NCBI GenBank assembly: GCA_964658305.1
Contig: OZ210885.1
Span: forward strand, 9,734,001 to 9,798,000
DNA length: 64,000 nucleotides
Direction: 5' to 3'
DNA from: Leptogorgia sarmentosa
Lineage: Eukaryota
The notes under the pieces are model-generated. The model searched no databases, was not told where the DNA came from, and worked only from the letters and a program-made list of their open reading frames with translations. A program made the translations under genes and the position numbers. Shown here in pieces: positions 4,601-61,763 of the stretch. Positions within the stretch are counted from its first letter, which is position 1. Each line of letters starts with the position of its first letter.

Positions 4601-5865
4601 CAGGGCCCATCAGAGGATGGTGGAATGATGTAATCTTGGTTCTCGAAATGGTTACTACAGATGAAACTAAATCTAGTGGCTTTCCACACTTGGTTATTAT
4701 TTAGCTTCATAACAGCACTTTCCCATTTCTGAAGCATATCCACATCCTTCAAAGGGAATCTGTACATACAAATGTATGGTTTAGTGTAATATGGTAAAGA
4801 TGTAATTCATTTTTTAAATGTTTATGGTGAATTTGAGTGCTTATCTCATTGTGTCTTTGTCACTGAATAGCTTATTGCTTTATCTACTTACCTACATTGT
4901 ACATACTTAGGTACATAGCCTGTGTACATAGTCATTGCATACAGGGCAATGAAATATAAGCTTATTGTGTATGCTTTTTCTATTATAACATAAAAGTGGA
5001 TTAAAATTTCCATTTTTCTGTAAAAATGTGTTTTTATCTTGTGAGTTATTATTTTCAGTGGGTTGTGTAGTTATAAAATATTTTAAAACTATTAGTCTTT
5101 ATTATATTTTGGGTTTGACATCTTTCACTGTTAGTTATAAATAAATGCCAGCTGATTGGTTGGGTAAATAAAAACTTGCCTGTGAAATGAAATATGTTTG
5201 TTTTCTTTCCCATCAACCTTGTAACCATTACTTTTGCACCCACGAATTGTGCAATTTACTGGCATATTTTTATCTTTATTTTAGGTAAATGTCTCCTCAG
5301 TTTTGCCTTTCAAAATTATTGTTTTTTAAATTTTAAAAAACTTTCCTCTCTGTCAGATTATAAAGTACTGGGGAGAATCAATTTTTGAACATAAATAGTA
5401 TGAAATATATAAGCTACTTAAAACGTAATTAACTTAAAAACAGTAAATGGAAGGCTTGTGCAAGTAGAGCTCTTGTTGTTCGTGTTGTGACTTGTGAGTG
5501 ATGACTTAATTACCTCAGACAATGACAAAATATTTGTTTTTGTTTTTTATACCGCATATAAACGTCTGTTTACAAAGTTTTCTCGAACAATGTCATACAA
5601 AAATAATTTTGCTGCTCCGTTAAGTGTTTCTAAAAGTTGTTCATGCAGAATACCTGCTCTATTCTGTGTTATTATTAACTAAAAAGGTCTGTAAATTGAG
5701 TGTTAAGACGAGACTTTTTTTACATATTCATAATTGCCGCCATATTGCCTACGGATAATCCGCGCAGGGGCCTGGATCATACCTACAAGACGAGCTTCAA
5801 TTTCCGCCATATTGGCTTCAAAATTTCCCGCCCAGCTAGCGTTCCAGTTTTATTTGAGTTCACTG
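1623..5865 (-). mobile_element. Full-length autonomous P-superfamily DNA transposon
   Basis: Perfect 32-bp TIR cagtgaactcaaataaaactggaacgctagct at 1623-1654 and 5834-5865; 8-bp TSD aattcgcc at 1615-1622 and 5866-5873; subterminal inverted repeat at ~1680-1720 / ~5779-5820; internal THAP transposase. Confidence 0.97.
2068..5265 (-). CDS. P-element (THAP9-like) transposase, 2 exons (5265-5180, 4759-2068), 925 aa
   Basis: Exon 1 MPVNCTIRGCKSNG...ISFHR supplies the first two THAP cysteines and joins through a GC-AG intron to FPLKD...W...ICSNHF...AVPS. Catalytic-region motifs IIDAM, TADG, DPCH and QDHLELLFS are present and the ORF is uninterrupted. Confidence 0.95.
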
Positions 5866-5969: not shown

Positions 5970-5993
5970 CTACGTTCTTATCCATACGAATAA
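5970..5993 (-). CDS. Candidate terminal coding exon of the STAND gene (LFVWIRT-stop)
   Basis: Acceptor tcattgtttgcag in phase 0 matches the previous exon and completes the strand SGKK-LFVW. Confidence 0.5.
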   Translation of the reverse strand, partial: LFVWIRT

Positions 5994-8900
5994 CTGCAAA
6001 CAATGATGAACAATAGTATAACGTTAAAATTGCGTTAGCGAGTAGCAAAACATGTGAATTTTCGTTCAAGAAAATGTCCTCTGAGACGCGCTTTTAAATT
6101 ATTTTTCGCAATATTTTCATGTTTGATCTCTGATTCTACTGAAACAATTAGATTACTCGCTCTCTATTTCTACGAGATGATAGTTGATTCGGGCTTCGCC
6201 CTCATCAACTATCACCTCATAGAAATCTCGAGCTCGTAATCTAATTGTTAAATAGAAATCTCGAACTCGTAATCTTATTGTTAAGTAGAAAACAACCTTT
6301 GCGAATAGAATCGAGTAAAACCTCGCCAATTTACGACAGCTTTAGAACTTGGCAAAGTTATCTTACTGTTCTCAAAATGTATTTTCTACAAAAAACACAT
6401 GATGGTGGAAAAAAGAAGTTGTGGTGCCTTCGTATCTCGAAATTTGTTCGGGGTTTGCCCTGACATGCATTCCGTAGAAAATGTTATTTATCACGACCAT
6501 TATTAACTTATGTAAAATGCATTGCAAGCATTTAGACTTTTGTTCAAGGACGAGATTTAATTTAATTTAATTGTTTTAACCTGATCGCTCGATTTCTAGC
6601 CCATGTTATTCGCAAATATATATTTTAATAAAAACTGCCTTCGCATACTTTAATTTTAAAGGTTTCGCCGTCTTATACAAAATAGTATGGAATTTTTTTC
6701 ATATTCATTTTAAAATTATAGCTTTGGGTTATTGCGTCATCGCGGCTCGCACATTTCTGGTAATGAAAGAAAAATCCAGCAAGAAAAAAAATATTAATTT
6801 GGTTGATTTCTTCCTGACATGGTGTGAACAATGGGGATTTATTCCGAATTTGCTTCCCAATTTTCAAAATGAAGATTGGGGCGAAGTTCATTTGCAATAA
6901 TTCTAGAAACGCTTCATAACGTGTATGTGCATGTGCTGTTTTACATCATGAAATTTGAATTACAGCTCAACCAACAACAAGTAACACGCCCAAAAATAAC
7001 ATTTGAAAATCTCGTTCGGAAAATGATATACATACCTTTTTGCCAGAAGCAACTATGATATTATCGGAGCGGGACGCGATGAATTCTAACGCGGTAATGG
7101 AATCAGAACAAATGTTGTCATGTGACCATATTAACGTCGGCAAGTTTTCTTCAACATTCCAAAGCTTCACAGACCCACCGATAGACCCCGATGCAAAGCG
7201 ACGTGAACGATCATGACCTCCTACCTCGCCTCTAACTTGAGAAATGGCAACCTCGTGTGCTGGGAACTTCAACTGCGAGTTATTGTTAAGATGAAACCAT
7301 AACAGTTCTCCGTCATCACAACCAAGCAATGCATAGTTTGAACCAAGAGCAGTAATGCAAGTGACTTTAACGTCTGGTTGACCCAAATTAATGCTGGCCT
7401 CGATATCATTAAAAGTTCTAAGTTCGATTCTGTTTACCTCGTCAACAAAAACGAAACGGACATCATCACTTAATAAGCAGACAAGACGTATGGCGACTCC
7501 AGATGCGGTCTTTGCGAATTGAACTATTTTAGAACACTCTATGTCGACCAGCGACAATGTTCCCGAACTGCTTCCAGACAGAGCAAATTTCCCATTTGAT
7601 GTGATGTCAATTGCTGTAACTATCGAGTCGTCAGGGTGACCTGCATGAAGGAAGTAAAATTTTTATTTGAAGTATTCATGTATGCGACGCTTCAGCGGTG
7701 TAGCCTGCCAATCATCGAAAATTATCCTTCAGGCGACAAGTAATCTTTACAGTTGCAGCAATAGAAATTTTATTCAAATCCAGGTAGGAAAATGCATCGC
7801 TGATATCGAAAACGCAAAAGTAAGTCATTCACTGTTGTGAATAAAAGACTACTATACTGGAATAAAGGTCGTTTTCCATTACAGTCGTTTTGCCCGCCCA
7901 AAATTCAATCACTTTCACCTGATAAATAGTACGTACATTGGACGAACTTTAATTTGAATGGCCATAATATGTTTTAATTGTTCCCAATCATTGCAGTTAT
8001 ACTAATTTTGACACATAATCGGAACAGAAAATTGCCTGTAAAGCTAGTCATTGCAAGACAATTTCAGAGCTAACACGTCAATCGAATTCAATATTTGACT
8101 CATTCGCCAGTGAATGCATTGGTTTTTCGGGAAAAATATATTCTCCTTTAAAACGGATATTTCACACATATAAATTATTGCATGTGTGTACGAATATAAT
8201 AAAAAATCCTGTAGTCGCAATTTGAAATAGTCCTTGATTTACCCACCTGCATTATGGTCGATCGAACTATCAGTTGAAAGTTTCCACTGGGAAAACACAT
8301 TATTCTGAAGCGAGCCAAACAAAAGATCTTTGGCGTCGGGTGATATTACAGGTGCGACCCTCGGACGTACAGTCGATACTTGCAAAGAGTCGAGATTGAT
8401 TTCACAAATATGCATATCAAGGCTGCATGTGTAAATCATGTTGCGATCGCATGCTATTTCCATTGTATAGGACGCGGGTAAAATGGCTTCTTTCAAAGAC
8501 GCATCAGGCTTTTGCCAGTCCCAGATGAACACATGGTTATCTTCGCATCCAATTATAACTTGCAACGTATCAGAATTAAAGCGAACAATCTCAGGTGCGC
8601 CATTGCTATCAATTTCATTGATTACACTGCCATCGCACAAATTCCACACCTTAAAAAATAAAAGGAAAAATTAATATTCTGTATGAAGCTTAAAACTTGT
8701 GACTATAATGATTTATATTTAAACTAATTGCGAATATAATAGCTAACAAGTAGAGTAGGTATCGTTATTTATATTATGCGTGCTGCTCAAAGCGATTACT
8801 GGAAGTTAGTTTTTAAAGATGAGTAGATAGGGCGTAAAAAGTTAGTTGATACGTTCCAGATTAGTTTTTACGACTTAGTTTCCAAATTATACGTACACTG

Positions 8901-11900: not shown

Positions 11901-14900
11901 TGCTTTACCGCAATGTGAAACAGAAATTGTGTGAAATTTTACCTAATCCTTTTCTAACCAACTAGCCAATGACTTTGTTCAATTCTTCATATTTTATGTA
12001 TGCATTTAACAGTTTAACTGCATATATTATACCTCAAATTTAAATTGTCCAATGAAAAAACAACATTTGTACCACGTGATGGTGTGATTTTTTACGGTAT
12101 TTCACTAAAATTTATGATTTCGCAATCCAGCGTGGGATACTATAATATCCCACGGCAGATCCACCGTGGGATATTATAGTATCCCACGCTCACGCGACGC
12201 GCTTAGCATAGCTAATTAGCTATGCAAAATGGCGGGCGAGCAAGACTCGGACGAAGAAATAAATGGACTTCTTGAAAACAATGATGCAAAAATGTTTTGT
12301 TCGGTATAATATATCATTTATAGACCCTCCGCTCGGGGGATTCGGCGTAATATTTCCCATCCCTCTCGCTCCGGGTCTATAAATGATAAGTATACAACCG
12401 CGTGAATAAAGCTACTGCAGAAAGTTTGACTGGTTTGCTTGAGTTCAGGAGTCTATTGAATTTTTCGTTAAACGAATAATGAAACAGCCATGCAAATTGT
12501 GGAAAATTCTGAAAGGGCTATTTAATTGTTAGCAAATATTTCAAGTTTCAACCGTTGTTAAAATGCTCGGAAAGCTATAAAATCGCAGATACGGAGCAGG
12601 CAATTGATAAAAAGTATGTTCAACGTCAAAATATTTAAGTTTTATTCGCCTTAGTGTTTTAACGCGTTGTTTTAGGAAATTCAACAAAGAGCAACAGTCT
12701 TGCTCACCATACCTAAACGAAACAGATTAAACGTTTCGATGAAACGTCCTTCCTCGTGAATTGGTGTGTTCACTAATGTAGTTATTCAGTGGATAGCGCA
12801 ATCTTACATGTGAACAACCATCTCGTTACAGGAACGTTATAAATTGTTACTGCATGAGACTTCCTCCATTAAACGAGCGGGGGAGTTGAAATTTGATTTC
12901 TTTCACCAGTTGACAGGTATTACTAGTTACGCATACAGGATTATCTCGAGCTTCATATTAATTGGACTATATCAAATGTCAATTATACATAACTATAGAT
13001 ACCGATTTTGAACAATATATATCTTGTGTCGCATCACGAATAGGTAAAGTCGTACATGACAGAACTTCAGCATTCAGTAAGTTGTTGCTTGGTCTTCCAG
13101 CAACACAAAATAGATAGTAAGTATCTTTCCCGTATAGACGACAAATTGCATGGTGGGGATTTTAGTAATGGGGATATTTTACGATCGGGTTAATTTGGTT
13201 CCAAATTTTCTAACTACAATAGAAATAAAAGATGTATTTATAGTACTCAGTTGTGTTGGTATTGGTTTTATTAACAGGCAGCAAAGAGTCTACTCACTAC
13301 CTAAATAACATAAACAGATTTTACGTTTCGAGCAAGGCCCTTCGCTGGGATCGAATATTGTGTTAAACTAATTCCCGACGAGGGCCCTTTAGCTGGAAAC
13401 GTCAAATCCGTTTGTATCCCGTCTATATGTATTGAGAAGAACTTTATTTGTTGTTAATGTTGCCATCTGCTACCTACACTAGTCACATATTCATACTTCA
13501 ATTATTATCTATCATGGGTTACGTGTACGTTGACCTGAAACCGTCATCATATAGGTCTGAATGAAGTTGATGTATAGTTTGTCTTAAATCATGCATGAGA
13601 ATCCATAACACATGGCAAATTAGTAACTTACTGAATCTGTCGAAATTTAAAGCTGTTTATGAAATTAAAAGCCAATGCTTCAATGCTCGTATCCATATAC
13701 TGATATACAAATTTATCTATTTTTAATATTAAAATATAACTTACTTCAAACAGTCATTCTTATCATGGCCAGAAATGCGCGACAGTCAGCGGCTCGGACA
13801 ACGGGCGCGTAATTGACAACAGAGCATGCGCATTACGATGAAGGACTTTGAATGGATAATTTAAATTGCAAATCCCCTGTTTACGAGGCTTTGGACCTAA
13901 ATTTTGTGCTAGAAATATGGACACGTTTGGGGCTAAAAGGAACCGCTTTCTGTGGACTTTTAAAAATTACAAATGGTTTAAACTGGTAGCGGAACTTTCA
14001 AACTTTAAAATACGATGTTGGCAACATTGAAAACTTGAAGATAAACCAGGGTAATTTTGCCACCAATTCGGGCATTACAACATAAATTATGGATTTAATA
14101 TAGCTTATTAATGGCATAGTTGGTTCGATAATTATTTTATGAGAAACCAACTCCCCGAATCCTTTGTATTATATAATTTCGTACAGGTTCACGTTGGGTT
14201 GTTTTAATCATTTCTAGATGTTGGCAAATAGGTTTATGCTCTCAATACTAATGCTATTTGTGGAAAATGCATTTTACTAGTATAATCTACTAGTAATAAA
14301 CGCCATTTTGAATAAATACGTATCAGGCTTTGCGCATGCTAAGTAGCTGACTGTCGTGCATTTCCGGCCATGGTTTTCTTATTATGTATTATATGTAAAT
14401 GTACATTTCTTTCGGTTCCGCGGTTTAAGATATGTCAGCATGAAGTCCTGGAATGGATTAAATGTGAAGTTACAGGTTTCAAAACAAAGCGCAAAACACG
14501 GATGTCGTGCAGTTTAAGCCAGTTTAAGAACACATCTGATATAGCATCAGAAAATCAAAGTTATAGTTTATGCCAATCAACCGAAATCTTCGTATTACAT
14601 TATACTGACACCTGCACGCTGATGATTTCCTCTTTGTTTCTTCATAATTATTAATGCATTTCACAAGTATATGTACCCATGTTTTGTAAAAATTGTATAC
14701 ATTCCTAATAATGAATACGCCGAGTCGAAACGTGGGACAAACAATTCAAAAAAATTCTTGTGTTTGGACGTTTCTATTGTTTTGTATTTTTATATGTACA
14801 GTATGGCTAGTAGGCTTGTGTACCATACCTTTATCGAGGACTTCGTTGAGTAATAATCCTTTGACAGCGACACGACATATTGATCATCAGCAGAGACTGC

Positions 14901-17900
14901 AACATCTTTTGCCCATTCAAGGTCACCTATTGATCAGGAAGGAAAAATAATCAATTCAGAAATTGAAGTTAACATTAAAAGGATATTTTCTGTAACAGTC
15001 ACAAATAGGTTGTGCATGATCAAGTTGGACGCGTTATTAAAATTAATGTAAAAATCTTTGCAATTTAAGGATTCATATACAATGAAAAGGAAAATCTTGA
15101 GTAGTGGATTCAATACTGTATCTAATATAACTTGATAGTAAGTTCTACTCACCAACTGAACGATAGGCAGTGAATTTGTTTTCTAACGTTTAGGTAGTAA
15201 GTAGAACTTTTGTTGCTTGTTGTGATGCTATTATATCCGGAACCTACACAGCAGTTGTCTACCAGCATTCGATATTGCCATTTTTTTATCATAGAAGATA
15301 TTTTCATCATCACAAATGGAGATGTATTTTTTACTTGTAAAAAAATGCACACATTGAGCTATCGCAAGCACCTCCATTCATATGACGTTGCATTGATAAA
15401 TAACATTGTAGCAATAAATTACGATGAACTACTAGACTACCATCCTTTAGATATTTATAGGAATTGTGAGAAAGTACATTAGAATGCGATACGATTTAGC
15501 GGATTGTGAAAGTTAAGATGCAAATTTAAATTGTAATGTAATATATAATATTGTTCCCACATGCTGGACCATTTGTCAATATTTTAAATATAGCTATATA
15601 AATTTCATAAAAAAATCTGGCTTGTATTTATTACCGATAATATAGGTGGGATTTCCAAAGAAATTAATCAATGCAAAACACGATATAGGAATATTCACGC
15701 CCTCTCACCCATTTAGCCACACCAAAATTGTGCAAATTTACACTTAGTGTTCTCTGAACACTTCGGAATTTAGGAGTGTGGTCGCATATTGAACCTTATT
15801 CTAATGGACTAGAGCATCAGGGCCGTAGCTACCGGGGGGTGTGGGGGGTGTCACACCCCCAATAATTGCGAAATCCCTATTTCAGGTAACTTTCCAATTA
15901 AAATTCAGGTAGATAATAAAGTAAATAACTTATCTAAAGACTAAAGACTAAAGTTCGTGAAGACTGATTGAGAAACAGAAAAGGTTAAAGCTGGGAAACA
16001 GTCCCTTGTGCGCATGTCTCAAATGTGTACACATTTTGTGAACATTGCCATATAATAACATTGCGTAATTCAGAAAGATGGCTGACGCAGGGGAGCGCCA
16101 AATTGCAATTGTTTTTAGCTCGCCTATATAATCACATCAGAGCAAGAAACGCGGTAAAAAGAACTTTATATCTAAAAAAGATGTATTAAAAAGTGTGCTT
16201 CTATGAATTATTTCGTGATGAAAATGTTTCAAAATCAAATATAAACCAAGTTACCTAATGCGTTATGCGTATGAATCTGCATAGTAGTATCATCCCGGGT
16301 AAACTAAACGTGAAGGATTTGTGTGGCGAAATTAAATTATACAAAGTGATATGAATTCCCCATAAGTAAGCTGTTGGTATCAAATATCATGTCGCATATA
16401 AATACAAATACAGTTAATACACATATTCAACACGCTACAGCAAAGTTGACAATGGCCGACTCGCGGCCATCTCCTTCAAGTCCAAGAGCTTCGAAGGCAA
16501 ATCCTTCAAATCCTGGTCGCCAAACTCAACAAGAAGGTCGCAAAGAATATTTCGCGAAAAGGTATGCATCGAAAGTGTTCCTGAATAATGCTATCGGTCG
16601 GTGGAATCGGTTGAAAACTGTCAACTTTGCTGTAGCGTAAAACTATTGCAATTTGGCACTCCCCTGTGTCAGCCATCTTTCTGAATTACGCAATGTTATA
16701 ATATGGCAATGTTTACAAAATGTGTACACATTTGGGACATGCGCAAAAGGGACTGTAACCCAGCTTTAAGTATCATAGAAATTTATTCAAAAGGGCAACA
16801 ATTGGCAGGAATGTTATGGATATATTGGGGTAAAAATTGACAGCTCATTAATATTCTATTTTGTGGTTGACGAAGAAAATTGACGATCCGATAAAAATGC
16901 ATGCCGGGACCTAGAGTCGCTTGGGCACAGGTGCCCCAGCGACTAATAAAAACATTTTGACTTTTGTTGTTTTATTTTGCTTTAAATTTTCTGGTAAATT
17001 GATAAAATTAGAAAATTTCAGGTAAATTATCGTTGCTCACCTCCCCCCCCCCCCCCCCCAATCGAAGGTTACTCGCAACGGCCCTGTAGAGCATAAACTA
17101 TCAAAGAATGGACTGGAAACGCACGCTGAAACTGCACAACAACAATGATACGCTTTATGTGAAACCCTGTAACTTCACATTAAATCCATTCCAAGACTTC
17201 CTGTGGACACATTTCAAATCAGAAGAGAAATGAGTGTGCATCTATCCACGGTTGAAGGCAAAAAATCACCGTTGCAATAAGTGGTGAGAAATTTTATATC
17301 TTGATATTTTGCTTGCGTTTTGTTTGTCATTGTTGTCTGTCAGTTTCAAATATTCCGTATCTCTACACTCTTCTTTATACTCCTGTAATAAACAAATAAC
17401 TTCACAGTTGCTCGTTTGTACCGTTATTATTTAATCGTTGTGATCGCTAAGCTCATGATCGTATAAGCTAAGATCGTATTTAGCGATCCATCACAATTAG
17501 TGAATAAAAATTGTATACACTCGCCAACCGTGAAGTAGCCAATCTCTATATATAGTCTTTCCATCTTAGAGAGTCCCCAAATCTCATAAAACATTTCCCT
17601 TTCGTCAATGATGCAAGTAGAGATTCGCAAAAAATAAAATTTGAACAAACGAGCCAACTGCGCATGAAGTAATTTGTTTATTATATGGATACAAGGAAGA
17701 GTGTAGAGATACTGAATATTTGATACACACAGACGACAATGACAAACACAACACGAGCGAAACATCAAAATATAAAATATCTTACTACATGAAACTAGTT
17801 GAGATTTTGTAATTACGATTGGTTATAAGAATACCAAAGGAATTCTTTTCTTTACATGCAATTATCTCAGGGAATACAAATCAAATGGCAATTAACGTAG

Positions 17901-35900: not shown

Positions 35901-38900
35901 TATTCTTGTATCTCATTTGCATATGCTCGTATCTTATTTGCATATGCAAATTTGGCAATTAGACACGCAAAAGGCGAATTATTCCAAAAAATGAAAGTTT
36001 GCGCGGCGTTTTGAAGGGCTTAAACACAAGCATTTTTTCTGAAATTTTGAACAGAAATACAAAACCTGACAAAGTGTCCGTCCATCAACTAAAAATTGCT
36101 TTTGAGCCTTTAAATTTCGTGTGCAAGACATTTTCTATCTGTTGGAAAAAACACTCCCCCGGGGATTTTGAAAATTCAAATTACAAAATGTTTTCGTTTA
36201 TTCTACATTATAAGTACTCAACCAATCCACATAAACCGAGAACTTTGTATCTCGAACCCCTTTGCGAAGTTGAGAGCGATTTAAAATCTGTTCAGTTTTT
36301 TTTATACACCCTGTAGTGTGGTAACAATCCAAAACAATTGCCATTCATCTACATGCAAGCGTACTTGGGCAGTGCTGGTAGCCGTTTCGACATATCGAGC
36401 AAAGACCCTTAGTCGTTAATTAGTAGTGGGGTCGGGGGAAAACACAAGGGTTTTTATATTAGTGAATATATGAAAACCAAGTAAAAACCAATCGGATGGA
36501 TTTGATACACCAGTTTTCGAAAGCCTTCGCCAGAAATGTGGAATCTTATCGTATCGTTTAGCCAGTGAAACAAAATTTATCAAAAAAAGAAAGTAATTAC
36601 CTAACAGCTGTGGAGCAATAGAATGCAAATTCTCCTCGATAACCGCAAAAGACCGCATCAACGACGTCTTGAGCAGTTCGATTTCTCTCGAGGGCTGGTC
36701 CAGAAAACGAAAATCTGACATTAAGGAAGGGAGATCGAATTGATTCACCTTTTCATAAAGCCAGTTAAAATTGAAGAACAGTTTATGTAGTTCATCAAAT
36801 TGTTCGGAGGAGTGGAGGTGATAGGACAGGTACTTGAAATAATAATCCTTGTTGCCTTCAAATTTACCCCAATCACCGTTCTCGGAATAACCACGAAGTG
36901 CCTTCACGAACAATCTTTGGACAGAACTTAGTTTGCCACCTAGTTTTGCACGTGCAAAACCCAAAAGGAGATCGTGGAGACGGTAGCTCTTGTTTCCATG
37001 GATATCAGATCCTGAAAATTATCGTTATAAGGCGAATTTCAATTAAGTGCAAAATTTTGGTTAGCGATCGCTTTCTTTTGAAATGCTTGCAATCAGCCAA
37101 AGTTTATGAGAATCGTTGACTGTTTGTATTTCAAAATAGAGCGTTCGCTAAAAGTCGATCGCGCGCCATTTCGCACTGAATTAAATTCTGCCATTAGAGA
37201 ACATAGTCACGTATGGTGATTCGAAACGTTTTTGTACAGGACACTAGAGCAGTCTGGGTCTGCCGTCAGGCTATAGTACAATAATTTTTTAGACTTAGCA
37301 TACCCCAGGGCGATGGAAGTATTTTCCATTCAATTCGATTTGTTACTCATCTAGGAATGTCAGAGGAAAACACTGAAAATATTGGGCAAATGAACGGGCC
37401 AAGGGCGTCAATCCTGGGGGGGATGGGGGGACGCGTCCCCCTCACTTTTTGAAGTGGGGGGGACGAATGTCAAATTATCCCCCCCACTTTTTATCATATT
37501 TAAAAAAAAATGTTTTTTGGTAATCTTAAAACCCCATGCCTGTATGCTATATATCGTGAATTGTGAAGTACAATCAACAATCTGAGATCAGAAGAAAACT
37601 ATTCGGAGCCTTCCAATAGTTCTGCGAATGAAATCCTAATTGGAAAGGCAATGGACCTCAGCCACGTACACACGTTCAAATTTGCTTTTGTTTTTATTGA
37701 TCATTTTATGTACAATTGATATAATTGTTAAAGAAATCGATCATTTCATTTGCGATTAAAATCTTTATTTTATTTATTACGTGAATATATATATTTATAT
37801 CAAATCTTTATATTATTTATCACGCGTAAATAATACGTGTTCAAATAATACACATGCATTCGACATCGACAAAAAATTCTCATAATTTAGGCAAGAAATT
37901 CGGCGGAAGAATTTTAGTAAAACTCGTCCCCAGAACACTGAAAATGGCATCTGTGCATGAGGTTTCAAATTTCAAAATTTTTCGGGAAAGCATGCCCCCG
38001 ACCCTTCTAGAAAGGGGCACGTTTCATTACTATTTTACAACAGATAGATTTTGCCCCCCCCCCCCCCATAAGCGTACGAGGCGAGGGGACAAGGGGGGCA
38101 ACCCCCAAAAAATTCAAATCGGGAAATTCGGGCACCGATATTGAGCATAATTCGGGCAAAAATTTGAGGAGTAAGGTAATGTCAACAATCCTCCAGTCGT
38201 TCACCTGAACGACAGTGCCAAGAAAGTGGTGTTAGGACTCTGAAATCGCCGTTTCCGGCAATCCAGAGGTTGTAAAAGTTCAAAAATTTCTCGCTCGGTG
38301 CCAACCATGGTGGCGCCTCGTGACATTTGCTACCCTCAAATTCGGGCAAAGATCTTTCTGCCCCCCCCTGAAAAAATGTAGCCCGTACGCTTATGGTCCC
38401 CCCCACTTTTTGGGACGGATTGACGCCCTTGGAACGGGCAAATTTGGCTAGCCCACATATGAGTCAACATATGATTATAGCTGAAAATTAATTTCGCAAA
38501 AGGAGCTGTAGTAAAAAAATATTTCAGAAACCTCTCGTCGTTTTCTTGAATTTCATTTGATTATGGTGCAGGAAGCAACAGACAAATTTAGCGATCGCGA
38601 AATTTAAAAATAAGACAACAAGCAACAAGCTATCATCATAGTTGAAAACAGCGTGCTGAAAATAGTCTGAATGCAAAGTGTGAAGAATAAAAATCATAAA
38701 ATGGGGAAATTGTGCCCATGCAAATTTAGCACAATTTACATACTATTTATGACGCAGAAGTAAGTTAATACACATTATCGTCTGAAATGGATATAATTTA
38801 CTTTGTGTTGATAAAATAGTACACAAAATGAATGTGTCTGGCAATGATATTCCCATTTTATGACATTTCTTCTTTATACTTTGCAGTTATAGTAATTTTT

Positions 38901-41900
38901 GCACGCTGTTTCCAACTGTGGCGATAGATTTTTGTCTATTATCATGCACCCTGCCTTCATTTACCTTTTTGAATCATCGACTTCTTTTCGAGCTCATCAA
39001 GTATACGTCTTCCATCACGACGGCTGCACGAAGTTCTTCCGGCTACTTTGGCAGACCAAAACAGCTCAAGAATGTCTAATGGTACATCCGTATCTTCTGG
39101 AAATAAAGCGAAATCTAGAAACTTTTCTCGTATTTCTTCGTCCAAATGTTGAAAGCTGGCGTTAATGGCTGTTAAGACGTTGTCGTAAGGATAAGCGTTG
39201 GCGGGATATATTGAACGTAATTTTACCAAGTCTGCTGTTTTTAGGTCATTTAAAACGTCTTCCCAGTCTTGTTCGTCGCGAGTGTCGGCTAAACTTGAAC
39301 CCACTAGGGACAGAGCTAGCGGTAGATCGCCGCAGTGGTTTAACAGTTCCTCTATAATTTGCCGCATGTTTGAACTAAACTTAGACTGCTCGTCCTCGGT
39401 GACTCGGGCAGTTTGATACAAGAGCTTGTAAGAATCATCCCGTTTTAAAAATTTGAGTGTGTACAAAGCAGAACCTTGTAAACCGCGCACAACTTCAGAA
39501 TCTCTGGTAGTTATTAATAATTGGCATTTTCCAGAGAGATGATCAAACACAGAAGCGTGGTTTACATTCCAAACATCATCAAGAATCACCAAGCAATCTT
39601 TGTCACTCTGCAATACATAGAAATCTACGTTATCGTCGCATCAGTTGATACTTTTCGAGTTGTTTACTGAAAGGGTAAAATTAATTTCGGCAAAGCAGGA
39701 GCAGAGTAAACATGGCTTCTGAATCAGAAGGACGACCCTCACCAACTCTCATGACAGAAACGTGGTAAAAGAATCGGGATCAATGAAAGTTTATGCTGGA
39801 AAATAGAAATACGTATATGCATCAACCCCTCGCCTTTTTTAGAAGTTGCAAAAAAATGCAACTATATATTTGGAACATGAAGTACGACAGAGACGCCTGA
39901 GGTTGTTGTCATGGCAACGCAATCGGCAATTCATATTTCTGTATTTTTTTGAAAACAGTCAAAATATTAGCTTTTATATCTTTGTTTTATTGGCGCTTTT
40001 TTTAATTTGGAGAACCATTAATTGTTATCCGTACGATATTAGGACTAATATAAACTTGAATTTTCTGCGAAATACTGCATTTATTTGCATGAAACTTTCC
40101 ATTTAAATATTCAAGTCAGTCTTTGATATGAAACAATTTCCAGCCAGTGTTCGCTCGTGTTCTTTTGGGATAAAATTTGTAAATATTTTGTGAAGTTTTG
40201 CTTTTAAAAACATGAACTTATACTCTGGAATTAAATCGTGAGTAGATTAAATGCGGCTACGGCGACCTTAAATCTTACAGCGCAGATCTTGTCTTTGTTT
40301 TCGCCTTTCCAAAGGCTTTAAAAAGCTTCGGCTCTTCATGATTGTCCGCCATATTTTTGAGATCAGTGATGACCATTCACGATAGCCCAAAGCGGCGGCG
40401 CCGAATCTGAGCCCTGCATACTCCGCTACGCTGCCGTTTACGGGGATAAAGTAAATTAGCCCTATGGGTATATTTTGTTACATCGTGGCAAGCAGTATTA
40501 TATAAACCCTGGGAAATGCGCACATACCGTATTTGCTTTTATCCAACCTTGCGCGGCGCGGATATCAGGGAACGTCATTTCTCCACCAATGTCTTTTATG
40601 AGGAGGTTAATCAGCGCTAGACAGTCTGGAGTTTCCCCAATGTCAAGTCATATTACCTGACGAGATTCTTTGGCAGCCCAAGCAACAGCCAGAGCTAAGA
40701 TGGTCTTACCCAGACCCCCCATACCACGGATACCAACGACGTCGCTCCCACGATTCCCAACCACACCAACTCTACTATTTCCATCCGCAAGTAACCTTAA
40801 TATCTCGTTCACTTCTGACGGTCTCTCCACCATGTCACGAGGTAGGCTGCGCAAACCATGGGCAACTAACATATAAAATAAGAATTGATGCTGTATTAGT
40901 AGACCCACTTTTGTGTGCGTAACGAATCGACAATTAATTACATATATTAGCCTGCACACCCATTTGCTAACGCTCTGTCGTGTCATTCTACAGAGTGTCC
41001 CAAAAAAACGCTACCATTGAAAATAATCTATTGTTAGAATTACAATGCCTTGCACTATAAGTTTAGCCCAAGGGTGCATAAATTATTGAAAATTTCTTAA
41101 TAGCTATTAAAATTGTTGTTATAGATTATTTTGAATGGCAGCGTTTTATTGTGGGGGGACCCCCTGTGTTCCAGGGACAAAATCACGACTACGCCGTAGA
41201 GATTTTTCGTAATGTATTTATTAATACATTCTATAGTAAAGTGATTAGATTGGATTAGAAATGATTCAAAATGACTAGGTTTGTACCCAGACCAATAGAT
41301 TTCTATTTACATTGAAGAGTGGATCTCTACAGCTTTACAAATACGACGCAAACTGACAAACACACTTTACTATCAACTCATAGACTCATAGACTCAACTC
41401 GTCTATTTGTTCCCTGTTCCCTGTCACAGTCAAACTGACATCCTGTTCTTCTTATCGTCAATCAACCATTACAAAATTATAGTTTTCTGCATGCGCATCA
41501 GTTACACAAATCATGGCCGGCGTAATCAAGTTAATAATCAACGGTTAATTAAAGTAAATGTAAATGTAGGCTGTCCATAACAACCTGTATGTATTTAAAA
41601 GGCGTTGCGTTTAAAAATGCACATTCTCTGTAATTGTCTCAAACTGGCTACTTTTTCTTATAATCATATACAGCTCGAGGGTAAATTTAATAAAACCTGA
41701 TTGACTAAATCTTCAGCATTTTTCACGTACGGCTTCCTCGCATTATTTGTCGTGTGTGAAATCGTCAAATTAAATTAGCTTGAAAGTAATTTGGTAAATA
41801 ATTAAGAAAATTCGGTAATTTGCTTGTGCCAAAACACTGCATGCGAAATCTCTTGGATTACATGCAAGCCATTTTTCCAACTTTTTGCGTTGTACACCTG

Positions 41901-44900
41901 TGCTAATTTAGAAACGTTAAACTGGAGAATATAACGCAGACTATCTTACTGATGGACCAAATATTGACTGAAATGCCTAAAATACTAAACGCCCAACTGA
42001 TATACTAATACAACTGCTTAATTCGTACATAAAATTAAGTGGCTTCCCAACAGATCCGACTATACTTCTACAATTACTCTCGCTGGCTAATTTTTGGCGC
42101 GTAATCTCACTGTAATATGTTTTTTCCACAATTTGATACCTTTTTTTGGCGAATAATTTCTTTGTTTCTCATAATGATTTTCCGTCATGTTGACATTTTG
42201 CTGTAAACTCTCAATTTTGTCAGCATGGCTTTGCAGTTCCTTCGAATGATGTTTAAATTTTGCCGAGTGTTGTTCAAGTTCCTTCGAATGCTCTCCAAGT
42301 TCCTTCGACTGATGATCAAATTTTGCCGAGTGTTGTTCCAGTTCCTTTGAGTGTTCTCCAAGTTCCTTCGACTGATGATCAAATTTTGCCGAGTGTTGTT
42401 CAAGTTCTTTCCAGTGTTCTCCAAGTTCCTTCGACTGATGGTCAAATTTTGCCGAGTGTTGTTCAAGTTCCTTCCAGTGTTCTCCAAGTTCCTTTGAATG
42501 ATGATCAAATTTTGCCGAGTGTTGTGCAAGTTCCTTTGAGTGTTCTCCAAGCTCCTTCGACTGATGATCAAATTTTGCCGAGTGTTGTTCAAGTTCCCTT
42601 GAGTGTTCTCCAAGTTCCTTCGACTGATCATCAAATTTTGCCGAGTGTTGTTCAAGTTCCTTTGAGTGTTGTTCAAGTTCCTTCGACTGATGGTCAAATT
42701 TTGCTGAGTGTTCCTCAAGTTCCCTTGAGTGTTCTCCAAGCTCCTTCGACTGATGATCAAATTTTGCCGAGTGTTGTTCAAGTTCCTTTGATTGTTCTCC
42801 AAGTTCCTTCGACTGATGGTCAAATTTTGCCGAGTGTTGTTCAAGTTCCTTTGAGTGTTGTTCAAGTTCCTTCGACTGATGGTCAAATTTTGCTGAGTGT
42901 TGGTCAAGTTCCCTTGAGTGTTCTCCAAGCTCCTTCGACTGATGATCAAATTTTGCCGAGTGTTGTTCAAGTTCCTTCGACTGATGATCAAATTTTGCCG
43001 AGTGTTGTTCAAGTTCCTTTGATTGTTCTCCAAGTTCCTTCGACTGATGGTCAAATTTTGCCGAGTGTTGTTCAAGTTCCTTTGAGTGTTGTTCAAGTTC
43101 CTTCGACTGATGGTCAAATTTTGCTGAGTGTTGGTCAAGTTCCCTTGAGTGTTCTCCAAGCTCCTTCGACTGATGATCAAATTTTGCCGAGTGTTGTTCA
43201 AGTTCCTTTGATTGTTCTCCAAGTTCCTTTGACTGATGATCAAATTTTTCCGAGTGTTGTTCAAGTTCCTTTGAGTGTTCTCCAAGTTCCTTTGACTGAT
43301 GATCAAATTTTTCCGAGTGTTGTTCAAGTTCCTTTGAGTGTTCTCCAAGTTCCTTCGACTGATGATCAAATTTTGCCGAGTGTTGTTCAAGTTCCTTTGA
43401 GTGTTCTCCAAGTTCCTTTGAATGATGATCAAATTTTACCGAGTGTTGTTCAAGTTCCTTTGAGTGTTCTCCAAGTTCCTTTGACTGATGACCAAATTTT
43501 TCCGCGTGTTGTTCAAGTTCCTTTGAGTGTTCTCCAAGTTCCTTGGACTGATGGACAAGTTTTTCTGAGTTTTTCGCGACACATTTTTCAACTTTTTCAA
43601 TTCTGCAGACCAGTTTTGAATAGATGTTGTCAAGTTTCTCTACCACGGCATTCATCTGCAGAGATACAATTAAGGAGCTATAAATATTTCAGTTTATATT
43701 AAATATTCATGATAAACATTAAAGATTAAAATATCAACAGAGATACAAATTATTCTTTATTCAGAGAACAATACATGTATGAATGTGCGAAATTTTCTGG
43801 TCAGCACTAGAAATTAATTGATATTTCGAAGCATCATGCATTATTCTGTTTAGAAATATTGCCCCATTATCCCACAATGTGTTCCAAAAATGCGTCCAAA
43901 AATGGGCACTGTTGAGTCAGCGATATTTAGCTATCACATCTGAAATTGCCAAAAAAAAGAAGCAGAAATTCTATAATTAAATATGCTTTTGGAACTTATT
44001 GATCGATTATAAAGCAAATTCAACAGTTACGGGATAAAAATAAATATAAAACAGGCCATATGTCGGCAAAATTTACATTCATCTTCGCAGAAGTATTATA
44101 GCCAAAGCGTTAGCATAAAAAAGGATTTCAAATTTCTCTTTAAAAAGGTATAATTCAAGTTTCGTTTTACTTCACTTCGGATTCAAATTCGAAAGGCATG
44201 TTATAAGCATTGCCGCCATTAGATTTTCGTTCTTTAGGATGCCGTAGGCCTCGTTTAGACGTCGTACATTTCATGTGCCAAACCTAGTGATAACGAGCTA
44301 AGTTCTTTGTTTGAGTTCGATTGGATTAGGCTCGGCACATGAAAAGTTCGACGTCTCAACTAGGTCTCATTCCAGGAAAGAACAAAGAATATGCTCAGTT
44401 TGGATTTGAATTGAATAAAACAATGTTCCTGTAGTTATAAAGTAGTAGCTTGTAAAATACTGCATGGCATTTCAACAAATAAACTACATGGCCTCATGCA
44501 TAAACACGTCACAAGGTGTGATGCATACAGACAATTCTGGTTTTAGTAGTAAAAGCAGGAATCTTTGAAAACAAATGAATGTTCCCGTCCCGACCACCAG
44601 AACCAGAATCGTGCACGACAACCTTTCGTGACGTCATTATACATAAGGTCTATTGAAATTTGACATGCAGGTCTGCTAGTTTTTAAACTTTTCAGAAAAT
44701 TGTAGCTCAACGTTGAAACATCAATAGCAATTTTGCAAGGAAAAGTTATTGTTATCTACGAATTGTTTTGCTTAATGGGGTGTCCTACGGCTAGTTTTTT
44801 CCTAAAAGAGAATTTATATTAGTATTTATCAGTAATTGATATGTAGTGTGTTTTATTTAACAATTAGATTACGAGCTCGAGATTTCTATGAGGTGATAGT

Positions 44901-47090
44901 TGATGAGGGCGAAGCCCGAATCAACTATCATCTCATAGAAATCGAGAGCGAGTAATCTAATTGTTTTAGTAGAATAAGAGATCAAACAGGAAAATATTGC
45001 AAAAAATAATTTAAAACCGCGTGTCAGAAGACATTTTCTTGAACGAAAATTCACATATTTTGCTACTCGCTATCTATCGAGGATTAGATAGCGAGTAGAG
45101 TAGCCAATCAAATTGCAGCATTTGCAATAGTATACGAGTATGATTCTACTAATTATCATTACACGCTTCGTTCTAAGTATTATATTGCGAACGTCTCCTT
45201 TCAAAAAAGTATGCACATGTTTGACTTGTAAGGTGCAACGGGTAAAATAAAACTCATAAAAACAGCATTATCGAAAAAAAAGCACAGATTGCGTTCCCAC
45301 GCTGAAAATTTGTACTCGCTCGCATTTGAAACATGTCTTATGTTAATTTGAACATTGTCTTCCTACTTATTCAATGGCTGTTAAATGCAACATAAAAACT
45401 TCCTCAAACCTTTGTGTCGGCGTTCGAATTGAAGTTTTTGATACAACGGCAAAGTTCAGCTACACTTTCTGCAATTAGTTTTGCGTGACGACCATCAACA
45501 AGAATGTCTGGAAATAATGAAGAAAATTTATCTTAAGTATCACAAACACTATAAATCTACCGCTGCTAATGCGCGTAGCACGAAGGATACATTGAAAAGC
45601 ATGCCCTGCTGTCCATACAAACTATTTGATAAGCATGGTCTGCCCTCGTTATTAGCAAACTTCAATATGCGGCCAGTGTAGTAGGCAGGGGATAACAACA
45701 TCAGCAAGCAGCACATGTCATACCCACTACCTAATCAATGCAAACTGGTTGGAAGTTTTGAGTAAAGTAGATCTAAAACAAAAAATTGGTAATAATGCTT
45801 TAACATTCGCTTTTATTCGACTTTTGAATGATTAAAGTTTTGAACACAAATTTCGAACTGTCCAATTCAAGTGAACAATTTTGATTTTATGCATATGATA
45901 GGATATATTAGTTGTACAATACTGTATACAGGGGCCGCGGAACCGGGGGGGGGGGGGGCAATGGGAGCAAGTGCCCCCCCCCCCACTTTTTGTACAAAAG
46001 GTCAATGTGCCCCTTTTTTTAAAGTAAAGTGCCCTTTTTCATCCGTGCCCTTTTCCAATTGTGGCCGCCAACTTTTGAGGTGCTTCCGCGGCCCCTGACT
46101 GTATAATTATGATGTTAAAAATGGCATTAAAGGCATCTGTCAAGGCATTTAATTTCTGCACTCAATATATGAAGGTTTAAAAATGAATCACTGTCTTCAA
46201 TTAAACACTAGATTTCTACGTAAAGCTTCAAAGTACACTATGATGCAAGGCCCCATGGGATACGACCTCATGTGATTCCAAAGATCATATTTAGAATTGC
46301 ATTGAATTGTGTGGTTGTATATGAATCAAATTGGATAATAATTATAATAAATGAATAATAAGAGAAATTGTTTCCACACGTGGGGGTTTTCTTACAGGAG
46401 ATCAAAAATGAACTGCGCGAAACATATTTAAAGGCATGATGAGCTTCCGGCAATAATGTTAATAATACAGTACCTGTTTTCTTCCAGAAATCTAGTTCAT
46501 CACAAATTGTTTTTTCGTCAGCTATTGGTAAATTTAATATTTTGACCAAAGATTCCATTGCTTGAAACGAGTCATTGAACATATGTAGGGTCCATTCAGA
46601 GATGTTACAATGAGCCCATGGGTTTCTGATGTCCGATCGTACTTTCTTTGCCTCAGCTGCAGCACCAGAAGATACGAAAGGAGCTGCCTCACCCATAATA
46701 GTCAAAAGTGCTGACATATCCATGGTCTCGTCAAATCCAGTGCAATGTGCCATAAACTCCTTGAGGAATAGTTTCGCCAGCGACAGAGAATCTTTAACAG
46801 CATAATCATAGGCATAGGCGGAAGCTCGGTTATGGATACGGTTGTTGTTGATGTTCCTGTACTCCAGCCTCTGTTTGGAAGGAGGTAATTTCTTCTTGTG
46901 CTTTGTAAAATCTTGCTTTTGAATTTCATCAGGTGGTTGGCATAAAGAATGATACCACTTCCCAAGTTCAGTGGCGACAACTTTCCTCAATGCAGGTGCA
47001 AGAACTTTGGTAAAGGCAATGCCAACTAAAACCCAATGTTGTTCTTCCTCCGATATCTTTTCGCTGCTACTCGGTAGAGAATGTGCCGAT
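5970..47090 (-). CDS. Multi-exon STAND/Apaf-1-like gene: HEPN-like domain, His-heptad coiled coil, NB-ARC, WD40 repeats (~1,980 aa; one in-frame TGA; start exon unresolved)
   Basis: 15 exons with AG/GT boundaries and matching phases: 47090-46474, 45507-45410, 43655-42140, 40865-40528, 39607-38965, 37011-36601, 33069-32824, 26030-25812, 23814-23605, 19583-19310, 18491-18259, 14926-14829, 8649-8247, 7640-7036, 5993-5970. Motifs: Walker A GMGGLGKT, Walker B LVILDDVW, LLITTRD, CGDLPLAL, LHD, multiple GH...WD repeats. Confidence 0.85.
6036..6254. repeat. Interspersed repeat with terminal hairpin (possibly a Crypton-like end); second copy inverted at 44854-45072
   Basis: Near-identical reverse-complement copy; hairpin gattac...gatagttga-ttcgggcttcgccc-tcatcaactatc...gtaatc. 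Confidence 0.75.
7036..7640 (-). CDS. WD40 exon of STAND gene
   Basis: GHPDDSIVTAIDITSNGKFALSGS...FASGSIGGSVKLWN; cag acceptor, AAG|gtatgt donor. Confidence 0.9.
8247..8649 (-). CDS. WD40 exon of STAND gene
   Basis: VWNLCDG...IIGCEDNHVFIWDW; polypyrimidine-aag acceptor, G|gtgggt donor. Confidence 0.88.
9186..11524. mobile_element. Non-autonomous P-like DNA transposon in STAND-gene intron
   Basis: Termini cactgagctata / tatagctcagtg; ~190-bp imperfect TIRs; perfect 8-bp TSD gtggcgat at 9178-9185 and 11525-11532. Confidence 0.85.
12129..12190. repeat. Perfect 27-bp-arm hairpin whose arms are themselves near-palindromic
   Basis: agcgtgggatactataatatcccacgg, 8-nt loop, ccgtgggatattatagtatcccacgct. 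Confidence 0.9.
13764..14372. mobile_element. MITE with CA...TG ends
   Basis: ~27-bp imperfect TIR catggccagaaatgcgcgacagtcagc / gctgactgtcgtgcatttccggccatg; TSD not clean. Confidence 0.7.
14829..14926 (-). CDS. WD40 exon of STAND gene (not in ORF track)
   Basis: GDLEWAKDVAVSADDQYVVSLSKDYYSTKSSIK; phase 1 to 0, exactly bridging the flanking exons (SIK|VWN). Confidence 0.85.
15818..17086. mobile_element. hAT-like MITE
   Basis: TIR cagggccgt / acggccctg; perfect 8-bp TSD tagagcat at 15810-15817 and 17087-17094. Confidence 0.85.
15989..16765 (+). mobile_element. Kolobok-like non-autonomous element nested in hAT MITE
   Basis: TTAA TSD, AG...CT termini, ~120-bp TIRs; internal peptide remnant MADSRP...KVFLNNAIGRWNRLK. 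Confidence 0.75.
17291..17778. mobile_element. Diverged MITE with ~130-bp TIRs
   Basis: tgtttgtcattgt...tatctctacactcttc is mirrored by gaagagtgtagagata...acaatgacaaaca. Confidence 0.7.
18259..18491 (-). CDS. WD40 exon of STAND gene
   Basis: VLTASRDGSIRVWN...DHSSDVTDITITRDESRCVSASTDGTFRVWN. Confidence 0.92.
19310..19583 (-). CDS. WD40 exon of STAND gene
   Basis: LVSGSYDGTIKIWD...GHESDVTSVAVS...YEGHKGRI. Confidence 0.93.
22200..23493. mobile_element. Non-autonomous Mutator-like (9-bp TSD) element
   Basis: TIR aacaggtgggaaa / tttcccacctgtt; 9-bp TSD ataaagaat at 22191-22199 and 23494-23502. Confidence 0.8.
23605..23814 (-). CDS. WD40 exon of STAND gene
   Basis: GLKVYCVSTGE...DGQFIATVGFYDETINLWK...LVGHIDYVTCV; ttgtag acceptor, G|gtatgc donor. 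Confidence 0.87.
25812..26030 (-). CDS. WD40 exon of STAND gene
   Basis: QLLGHSRTVSCLAVTQSGTILASGSWDGSTILW; G|gtaagc donor. Confidence 0.92.
27888..28992. mobile_element. Non-autonomous TIR element (Merlin- or MULE-like) with 10-bp subterminal arrays
   Basis: GATC termini; ~200-bp TIRs containing (cacgartgac)n; perfect 9-bp TSD cgaggcaag at 27879-27887 and 28993-29001. Confidence 0.88.
30048..30150. repeat. ~45-bp-arm hairpin at the end of an interspersed repeat
   Basis: ggtccggatagaaaaatattttgtc...aaaaacgtccc / gggacgtttttg...gacaaaatatttttctatccggacc around tcggccttcggcctc. Confidence 0.8.
30275..30860. repeat. 61-bp tandem array, about 10 copies, CpG-rich
   Basis: Unit aagtcaggataacgacgtcgattgaacgtcgaaacgaggtcaatttgtcgacgtcgatatt with 61-bp period (30275, 30336, ...). 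Confidence 0.95.
32824..33069 (-). CDS. Helical-domain/first WD40 exon of STAND gene
   Basis: GRLLSY...LMPESSCFDLGG...VICGCWNGSITIFDLDTG; ccag acceptor, G|gtaagt donor. Confidence 0.9.
33212..33438. mobile_element. Tc1/mariner-like MITE
   Basis: TIR ccgagtggcgcaaaaaa / ttttttgcgccacacgg-TA; largely palindromic. Confidence 0.7.
33900..35530 (-). pseudogene. Helitron/Helentron Rep (HUH) fragment, degenerate
   Basis: LFAMIRLLG..TWFCSFSAAETQW, LIQKDPV, FFYRVEFPQRGSPHIHGLF*, HKHSKTCKK...CRFNFPLPP; stops and frameshifts. Confidence 0.88.
35542..36313. mobile_element. Tc1/mariner-like foldback MITE (772 bp, almost wholly palindromic)
   Basis: TA-cagggtgtataaaaaaa ... tttttatacaccctg-TA; arms ~370 bp; mirror-image ORFs in the track. 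Confidence 0.92.
36601..37011 (-). CDS. Winged-helix (MHD-equivalent LHD) and helical-domain exon of STAND gene
   Basis: SYRLHDLLLGFAR...YYFKYLSYHL...LFFNFNWLYEKV...LMSDF...QLLG, an Apaf-1-type helical region. Confidence 0.92.
37400..38431. mobile_element. hAT-like MITE containing nested 38067-38395 MITE
   Basis: TIR caagggcgtcaatcc / ggattgacgcccttg; 8-bp TSD gaacgggc at 37392-37399 and 38432-38439. Confidence 0.88.
38067..38395. mobile_element. hAT-like MITE, same family as 263-590
   Basis: TIR cataagcgtacg / cgtacgcttatg; interior is the reverse complement of 263-590. Confidence 0.85.
38965..39607 (-). CDS. NB-ARC exon (Walker B, sensor 1, GLPL-like)
   Basis: CLVILDDVW, QLLITTRD, CGDLPLALSLVG, FLDFALFPED. 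Confidence 0.95.
40528..40865 (-). CDS. NB-ARC P-loop exon with internal TGA at 40650-40648
   Basis: VVGIRGMGGLGKTILALAV...RQVI*LDIGETPDCLALINLL...KANT|gtatgt. Confidence 0.9.
42140..43655 (-). CDS. Coiled-coil exon of STAND gene: ~63 tandem heptads (QSKELGE / HSKELEQ / HSAKFDH)
   Basis: tgcag acceptor in phase 0 and G|gtatca donor in phase 1 fit both neighbours; 21/63-bp tandem DNA repeat with non-repetitive coiled-coil flanks in this frame only. Confidence 0.85.
44854..45072. repeat. Second (inverted) copy of the 6036-6254 repeat
   Basis: Near-identical ORF-track peptides MNFRSRKC... on opposite strands. Confidence 0.8.
45410..45507 (-). CDS. Linker exon joining the HEPN-like domain to the coiled coil (not in ORF track)
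   Basis: ttatttccag|ACATT... DILVDGRHAKLIAESVAELCRCIKNFNSNADTK|gtttga; phase 1 to 0 as required by both neighbours. Confidence 0.7.
45929..46097. mobile_element. Small hAT-like MITE
   Basis: TIR caggggccgcggaa / ttccgcggcccctg; 8-bp TSD actgtata. Confidence 0.9.
46474..47090 (-). CDS. N-terminal HEPN-like domain exon of STAND gene
   Basis: EEEQHWVLVGIAFTKVLAPALRKVV...DMSALLTIM...VRSDIRNPWAHCN; Rx4H motif at 46627-46610; helical character; G|gtactg donor. Confidence 0.8.
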
Positions 47091-61572: not shown

Positions 61573-61763
61573 TTAATGTTTAATGTAATTTAATAATAAT
61601 TTAATGTAATTTAATGTTTTGTAATAAATGTTATAAGCCTTAAATTTGGTCGTTACTATCTGAACTTTAAATGAAGAATTGTTGTAATTTGGGTGAAAAT
61701 TCGCTGCTAGGTAAAATATCCATATTTTCTTTCATTACAATTTTAGAACTCGTTGGATTAACC

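Follow-up and report, generated by a model that had tools for sequence, protein, structure and literature searches.

A probably broken copy of a likely octocoral Apaf-1-like receptor gene with a likely HEPN domain and a repeat rod in Leptogorgia sarmentosa

Introduction

Has an octocoral joined a ribonuclease (RNase) domain to a receptor of the Apaf-1 type, and can the copy found here still make such a protein? The question is raised by a gene on the minus strand, between positions 47090 and 5970, of a 64,000-nucleotide stretch of Leptogorgia sarmentosa DNA (assembly GCA_964658305.1, contig OZ210885.1, positions 9,734,001 to 9,798,000; the whole stretch is called the window below). The answer toward which we lean is that the locus holds a broken copy of a likely octocoral Apaf-1-like receptor gene, in which tandem DEDs have probably been swapped for a likely HEPN RNase and a repeat rod, and whose intact members would cut RNA through HEPN domains paired by oligomerization. 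The fusion is found within a single open reading frame (ORF) in a homologue, while the copy in the window has a premature stop and lacks a start codon.

Gene model and the fused homologue

The gene model comprises 15 exons, from 47090-46474 to 5993-5970 on the minus strand, with AG/GT ends and compatible phases throughout. To this extent the first-pass annotation of the sequence was right; the single open frame that it also described is absent, because exon 4 contains an in-frame TGA, and exon 1 has no ATG. All five motifs that it quoted are present on the minus strand (RNPWAH at 46627, GMGGLGKT at 40725, LDDVW at 39583, GDLPLAL at 39331 and LHD at 36979), and its NB-ARC and WD40 array are recovered by Pfam, with matches on the exon model to NB-ARC (E 3.9e-21), APAF1_C (E 4.4e-10) and WD40. 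The features of an Apaf-1-like STAND protein, namely the Walker A, Walker B, GxP and MHD motifs, the winged helix and APAF1_C, are all encoded, with the TGA interrupting them here. No CARD was found in the gene model with Pfam. The features of the gene are as follows.

Exon 1, 46474..47090, minus strand: HEPN-like domain of 205 amino acids, with RNPWAH at residues 155-160 and a conserved D124; without initiator ATG
Exon 2, 45410..45507, minus strand: helical linker, 73% identical to P0001 and homologous to the post-HEPN linker of P0001 and of the TPR/beta-helix family
Exon 3, 42140..43655, minus strand: predicted coiled-coil rod, a 21-nucleotide tandem repeat giving 63 heptads; joined to exon 4 in loose ends of run X9
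Exon 4, 40528..40865, minus strand: start of the NB-ARC with Walker A, 77% identical to P0001; RNA-like cover 40528-40867
In-frame TGA, 40648..40650, minus strand: within the NB-ARC; Trp in relatives
Exon 5, 38965..39607, minus strand: Walker B, sensor-1, GxP motif and winged helix; NB-ARC by Pfam; joined to exon 6 in runs X8 and X9
Exon 6, 36601..37011, minus strand: LHD (MHD-type) motif and APAF1_C helical domain; X8 and X9 joints at both ends
Exon 7, 32824..33069, minus strand: end of the helical domain and first WD40 strands
Exon 8, 25812..26030, minus strand: WD40; exon 7-8 loose end in X9
Exon 9, 23605..23814, minus strand: WD40, with homologue support
Exon 10, 19310..19553, minus strand: WD40, with homologue support
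Exon 11, 18259..18491, minus strand: WD40, with homologue support
Exon 12, 14829..14926, minus strand: WD40, from tblastn to P0165 (E 0.005) and phases
Exon 13, 8247..8649, minus strand: WD40, from Pfam and homologues
Exon 14, 7036..7640, minus strand: WD40; the last exon backed by homologues
Putative exon 15, 5970..5993, minus strand: 8 codons to a TAG, without homologue or RNA support

That these parts belong to one protein is borne out by the homologue P0001, whose 1205 amino acids are encoded in a single ORF on one 4084-nucleotide contig. N-domain, linker, rod, NB-ARC and WD40 repeats follow one another there in the same order, and hence the fusion is real in this family, as the first-pass annotation had supposed when it placed HEPN and NB-ARC/WD40 in one protein. 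Identity between the two genes is 71% over exon 1, 53-77% over exons 2-10 and 39% over exon 11, after which P0001 ends and has no bearing on the later exons. The closest named relatives, both of the N-domain and of the NB-ARC, come from Dendronephthya, Paramuricea and Xenia. The rod differs most visibly in length, with 63 heptads in the window gene against 8 of the same heptads in P0001; thus its length probably reflects repeat expansion rather than design.

Origin of the chimera

The NB-ARC and the HEPN domain point to different sources. The NB-ARC is 64-65% identical to that of the DED-bearing proteins P0164 and P0165, whereas it shares 22-25% over long alignments with an octocoral family of HEPN-NB-ARC-TPR-beta-helix-MYND proteins. 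The HEPN domain, by contrast, nests within the clade of that same family with a Shimodaira-Hasegawa-like approximate likelihood ratio (SH-aLRT) support of 100, in a tree of 35 rows hand-picked from 162. A chimera of a DED-type NB-ARC/WD40 chassis with a HEPN exon is well supported by these sequence comparisons, and the octocoral HEPN-NB-ARC-TPR family would be the most likely source of that exon.

The first-pass annotation had set the HEPN domain in place of a CARD, and this wording has to be dropped, the nearest NB-ARC relatives carrying tandem DED or Death domains. More fully, the N-termini of these relatives are DED pairs, single DEDs (P0165 and P0166) or Death pairs; P0001 is the only one of the 19 NB-ARC matches with a HEPN domain, and no Apaf-1 orthologue occurs among the 19 or in the trees. 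In the NB-ARC tree, the window gene, P0001 and a Paramuricea coiled-coil protein group beside the DED-bearing P0164. The HEPN-bearing branch keeps 80-85% of conserved NB-ARC columns, against 92-94% in the octocoral DED/Death-NB-ARC-WD40 proteins. Additionally, the HEPN-rod module ends at a phase-1 intron immediately before the NB-ARC, a boundary that would suit exon shuffling. The DED was likely the older state, swapped for HEPN and rod, although this polarity is weakly shown.

The octocoral DED/Death proteins, from Dendronephthya (P0165, P0166), Xenia (P0171, P0172), ENA (P0164) and Logan (P0167), are the closest known system. They share with the window gene a colinear series of NB-ARC, helical domain and WD40 array, and P0165, P0166, P0167 and P0171 are 44-53% identical to it over about 1250 residues; the difference is that their DED or Death pair is replaced by HEPN and rod. 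Apaf-1 homologues with DED or Death domains replacing the CARD are described in Nematostella, amphioxus and sea urchin (PMC2246300).

Lesions of this copy

With the exon 4 boundary that is backed by homologues and RNA-like contigs (40865-40528), codon 816 of 1967 is TGA (40650-40648). P0001 has W421 at this site, and the other relatives displayed have Trp in the same motif. Of 18 close relatives, 14 have their initiator Met at a site that reads Ser in exon 1, and the other four begin a few residues further on; the gene model reaches its first in-frame Met at residue 113. The gene thus lacks both a start codon and an uninterrupted frame. Its C-terminal WD40 array is also incomplete within the window, where tblastn found nothing of the roughly 170 residues that full-length relatives have beyond exon 14; the missing last WD40 exon or exons could lie beyond the window edge. 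The intact receptor of the first-pass annotation is therefore not what the locus holds, given its early TGA, absent ATG and missing C-terminus. This copy is probably broken, a real copy of a variant of a known receptor design.

Four read runs, X1, X4, X8 and X9, each holding several haplotypes or paralogues, were compared with the window, and X8 and X9 were called RNA-like from exon-limited cover and CT..AC joints. Both cover exon 4 from 40528 to 40867 without the flanking introns, and both contain the splice joints 33068-36600 (exons 6-7) and 37010-38964 (exons 5-6), which are not in X1 or X4. X9 also has loose ends that correspond to exons 3-4 and 7-8, some of them derived from copies that differ slightly, and a diverged copy in X9, compared by eye, joins the long exon 4 end to exon 5. 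At 40648, a site near contig ends, no variant row occurs in any of the four runs, and none of the seven listed contigs over the TGA site is identical to the window. Since several haplotypes or paralogues are present in each run, it is simplest to read the runs as lacking the stop, which is probably private to this haplotype or to the assembly. The runs share at most 0.43 of words with the window and differ from it at many fixed sites, so no run looks like the source individual.

The alternative that survives best, although we regard it as unlikely, is that the animal itself carries an intact gene, with both the TGA and the lack of an ATG arising from assembly errors and the last WD40 exon lying beyond the window edge. 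A variant-free 40648 with no contig identical to the window fits TGG everywhere else, and X9 holds a near-identical spliced contig (368 letters, 4 differences). Errors are also favored by another gene of the window (61671-64000), in which a stop and a T-run frame change likewise interrupt the reading frame, and 39 of 43 family-conserved HEPN columns are kept in the window domain. Nevertheless, two separate errors and a missing exon are required; the 505-codon exon 3 and two other ORFs in the window, of 912 and 820 amino acids, are unbroken, which argues against a high error rate; and the fixed differences of the runs mean that they do not represent the source individual. We retain a broken copy as the preferred reading of the locus.

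Nature of the N-terminal domain

The first-pass annotation recognized a HEPN domain by its RNPWAH sequence, which conforms to Rx4-6H with a polar residue (N, D or H) after the R. Rx4H occurs in 25% of 10,000 shuffles of the domain and R[NDH]x3H in 3.8%, so that the motif alone says little and the HEPN case rests on conservation and position. A profile of the domain retrieved 568 clusters at 50% identity. Among the 126 domains that cover the motif, out of 157 in the best 150 of these clusters, R is conserved in 121, N in 119 and H in 121; the conservation of R and H in homologues, on which the first-pass annotation had staked its assignment, is thus upheld. A model built from 72 sequences, with a predicted local distance difference test score (pLDDT) of 95.8 (45.6 for a single-sequence model), is all-helical and sets the motif at the end of helix 143-159, the third, before helix 168-184. 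The end of helix 3 is the HEPN placement according to PMC3710099. The conserved D124 lies 31 residues before R155, a spacing close to that of the D134-R162 pair proposed from modelling for CXorf38 (10.64898/2026.05.28.728550).

Further signals lead to the same neighborhood. Weak Pfam matches in relatives (E<=0.1) fall on HEPN_Swt1 in 37 of 72 and on DUF4559, the CXorf38 family, in 22 of 72, and the nearest Atlas clusters (0.93-0.97) have DUF4559 or HEPN_DZIP3 on 11-38% of their members. The fifty matches listed by VIA include the yeast Swt1 C-terminal domain, aligned over 119 of 136 residues (Z 7.3, root-mean-square deviation 3.4), four entries titled HEPN and one Csm6; Z is 5.8-7.3 for the Swt1 domain, 2hsb, 7ae2, 3o10, 4nqf and Csm6, tied with unrelated bundles. 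PF18738, the DZIP3/hRUL138-like HEPN, matches six of the 72 relatives at E<=0.1, at an unchecked position, and in P0141 it marks a second, separate domain. Membership of the DZIP3 type was rejected, the window domain having no Pfam match to PF18738. Profile searches of PDB sequences with the N-domain gave nothing significant. Hence, R/H conservation and helix position uphold the HEPN assignment, while a decisive match to a solved fold or curated profile did not emerge. That the domain has a HEPN fold related to Swt1 and CXorf38 we hold to be very probable. It differs from these in matching neither of their Pfam models and in containing an insertion of some 75 residues that has a conserved YxxINxN motif of its own.

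Whether such a fold cuts RNA is a separate matter, and an active RNase in intact members is probable, if less firmly so than the fold itself. An improbable alternative is a HEPN-fold scaffold or RNA binder that signals through protein partners. The eukaryotic Swt1 HEPN is listed as inactive in PMC3710099, no cleavage data for this HEPN family or for CXorf38 were found in the literature searched, and CXorf38 catalysis is only modelled (10.64898/2026.05.28.728550). Against a mere scaffold, however, R, N and H are 94-96% conserved over the 126 domains with very different partners, and D124 keeps nearly the CXorf38 distance. Among 44 long representatives (counting the best five families of each), the partners are nSTAND3 and/or ankyrin in 17, NB-ARC/TPR-type in 11, NACHT in three, NPHP3_N in two, Roco in two, and AIG1, kinase-KEN, a PARP14-like RRM and a second HEPN in one each, with none or other in five. 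Almost all of these chassis are of the STAND, GTPase or kinase-KEN kind, in keeping with an immune effector.

The same HEPN subfamily occurs on a kinase plus 2-5A-RNase (KEN) protein of Xenia (P0124), which has two different HEPN-type domains. It is C-terminal on Roco GTPases (P0059 of Actinia, and P0070), and it is also found on an AIG1 GTPase of Mytilus (P0040).

Very improbable, finally, is that this copy still works, whether as a HEPN-rod protein cut short by the TGA or by splicing around the stop from a cryptic donor at 40657. Use of this donor does yield an open frame of 1924 amino acids, but 43 residues of the NB-ARC core are lost with it, of which 30 are the same in P0001. It was rejected as the normal splice, since the cover of X8 and X9 extends over the exon to 40528 and shows no loose end at 40657. 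No ATG precedes residue 113, so the N-terminal helix of the HEPN would be lost, and nonsense-mediated decay would normally be expected for a transcript with a stop as early as exon 4 of 15.

Discussion

Several observations weigh against a broken DED-to-HEPN chimera with an RNase effector. The window N-domain has no Pfam, NCBIfam or PADLOC match, the last also setting it apart from bacterial Avs proteins, and the fold check proposed in the first-pass annotation was equivocal: Foldseek returned nothing for the N-domain model at E<=0.001 in PDB or viral libraries, and the Z of 7-8 reached with VIA is tied with acyl-CoA dehydrogenase helical bundles and falls within the common range of helical models. 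Likely core positions of the rod hold Ser as well as Leu/Phe, so that of the long coiled coil first described the 63-heptad repeat stands and a stable coiled coil is only predicted. For the DED as older state the test is weak: holding the seven ingroup rows without HEPN or coiled coil together is weakly rejected (approximately unbiased test, p-AU 0.03), and that group was named after the first tree was seen. Furthermore, the read-based joints are limited to the exon 3-8 region, and 40648 is too close to contig ends for its base to be listed in the runs.

For intact members of the family we infer, by analogy, gating of oligomerization by a ligand, a composite active site, cleavage of RNA and, as the outcome, antiviral action or cell suicide. 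In Apaf-1, WD40 propellers hold the NB-ARC closed, and ligand together with nucleotide exchange builds a ring. Similarly, the WD40 propellers here would keep the NB-ARC closed until a ligand binds, which would lead to nucleotide exchange and an NB-ARC ring. Avs and RNase L would share this logic, since in both a sensor-driven multimer (a dimer in RNase L) switches on a nuclease; RNase L differs from the window gene in its ankyrin repeats and kinase fold. HEPN RNases need two motifs in a dimer (10.64898/2026.05.28.728550). Ring and rod together may therefore pair HEPN domains into a dimeric composite active site for RNA cleavage, and this could end in antiviral arrest or in cell death without caspases.

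It is tempting to go further, in a proposal that we would give rather less than an even chance. The unnamed RNxW[AG]H HEPN subfamily would be a mobile RNase effector in the immunity of marine invertebrates, carried on NACHT-LRR, nSTAND3-ankyrin, NB-ARC-TPR, Roco, AIG1 and kinase-KEN chassis, and replacement of the DEDs of an Apaf-1-like protein in octocorals would have created a caspase-independent 'RNase apoptosome' with the rod pairing its HEPNs upon oligomerization, the gene being active in other individuals of the species. If true, a caspase-recruiting platform would have been turned into one that needs no caspases. The DED-to-HEPN swap, with DED-bearing sisters as controls, would offer a clean test of whether animal STAND oligomers switch on an RNase, in parallel with bacterial Avs proteins switching on nucleases. 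The window copy is a poor object for such a test, and an intact paralogue such as P0001 a better one. Among the NLR-like proteins of corals and bivalves, HEPN-STAND receptors rank with the commonest, and as the 568 clusters of this subfamily fall below Pfam thresholds, published counts probably underestimate the number of HEPN receptors.

The same three parts, HEPN effector, STAND ATPase and repeat sensor, make up the DZIP3-like HEPN-NACHT-WD40/LRR and the HEPN-NB-ARC-TPR receptors of corals and bivalves. The window gene differs from the DZIP3-like receptors in its HEPN subfamily, RNxW[AG]H and below Pfam thresholds, and in having an Apaf-type NB-ARC instead of NACHT. Of the 180 WD40 rows in a table of coral domains (PMC10236652, Additional file 17), 60 were examined, and among these 38 are HEPN-NACHT-WD40 and none is HEPN-NB-ARC-WD40; HEPN-NB-ARC-TPR is catalogued in the same work, and in the one NB-ARC-WD40 orthogroup checked there, five of five rows have DEATH. 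Dendronephthya gigantea has 83 HEPN-NACHT proteins (PMC8260672) and a pearl oyster more than 50 (PMC9646362). Fusions of cnidarian CXorf38-family HEPN to NACHT and DEATH were described in 2013, with an RNase L-like role in defense or apoptosis proposed (PMC3710099). The literature searched, which covered few subscription papers, yielded neither a biochemical test of any animal HEPN-STAND protein nor an account of the exact HEPN-rod-NB-ARC-WD40 architecture. The novelty suggested by the first-pass annotation is thus overstated: the gene is a variant of receptor designs already catalogued in corals, and the idea of RNase immunity dates from 2013.

Other features of the window

Intron 7 contains an element whose two ends carry inverted arrays of 10-bp repeats, as well as a 61-bp tandem array (27907-28973, 30275-30855). 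In intron 6, weak Pfam matches mark a decayed Helitron-like fragment (34196-35743), and an adjacent stretch of 774 bp (35540-36313) is skipped in X1, X4 and X8 contigs, which indicates a polymorphic insertion. An unbroken THAP/P-element transposase ORF of 912 amino acids (2071-4806, minus strand) lies immediately downstream of the gene, in a place where one might look for the absent last WD40 exon or exons.

On the other side of the gene, an unbroken ORF of 820 amino acids (59113-61572, minus strand) encodes reverse transcriptase and GIY-YIG domains, and we take this element to be Penelope-like. It is followed by an intronless TPT/PEP-translocator ORF (61671-64000, plus strand) that runs into a further stretch, presumably glycosyltransferase-like, broken both by a TAG at 63126-63128 and by a frame change at a T run; beyond this stretch comes a polysaccharide-pyruvyl-transferase-like ORF (Atlas 0.95, PF04230). 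A phosphoenolpyruvate (PEP) carrier and a pyruvyl transferase in one animal unit would resemble fission-yeast glycan pyruvylation.

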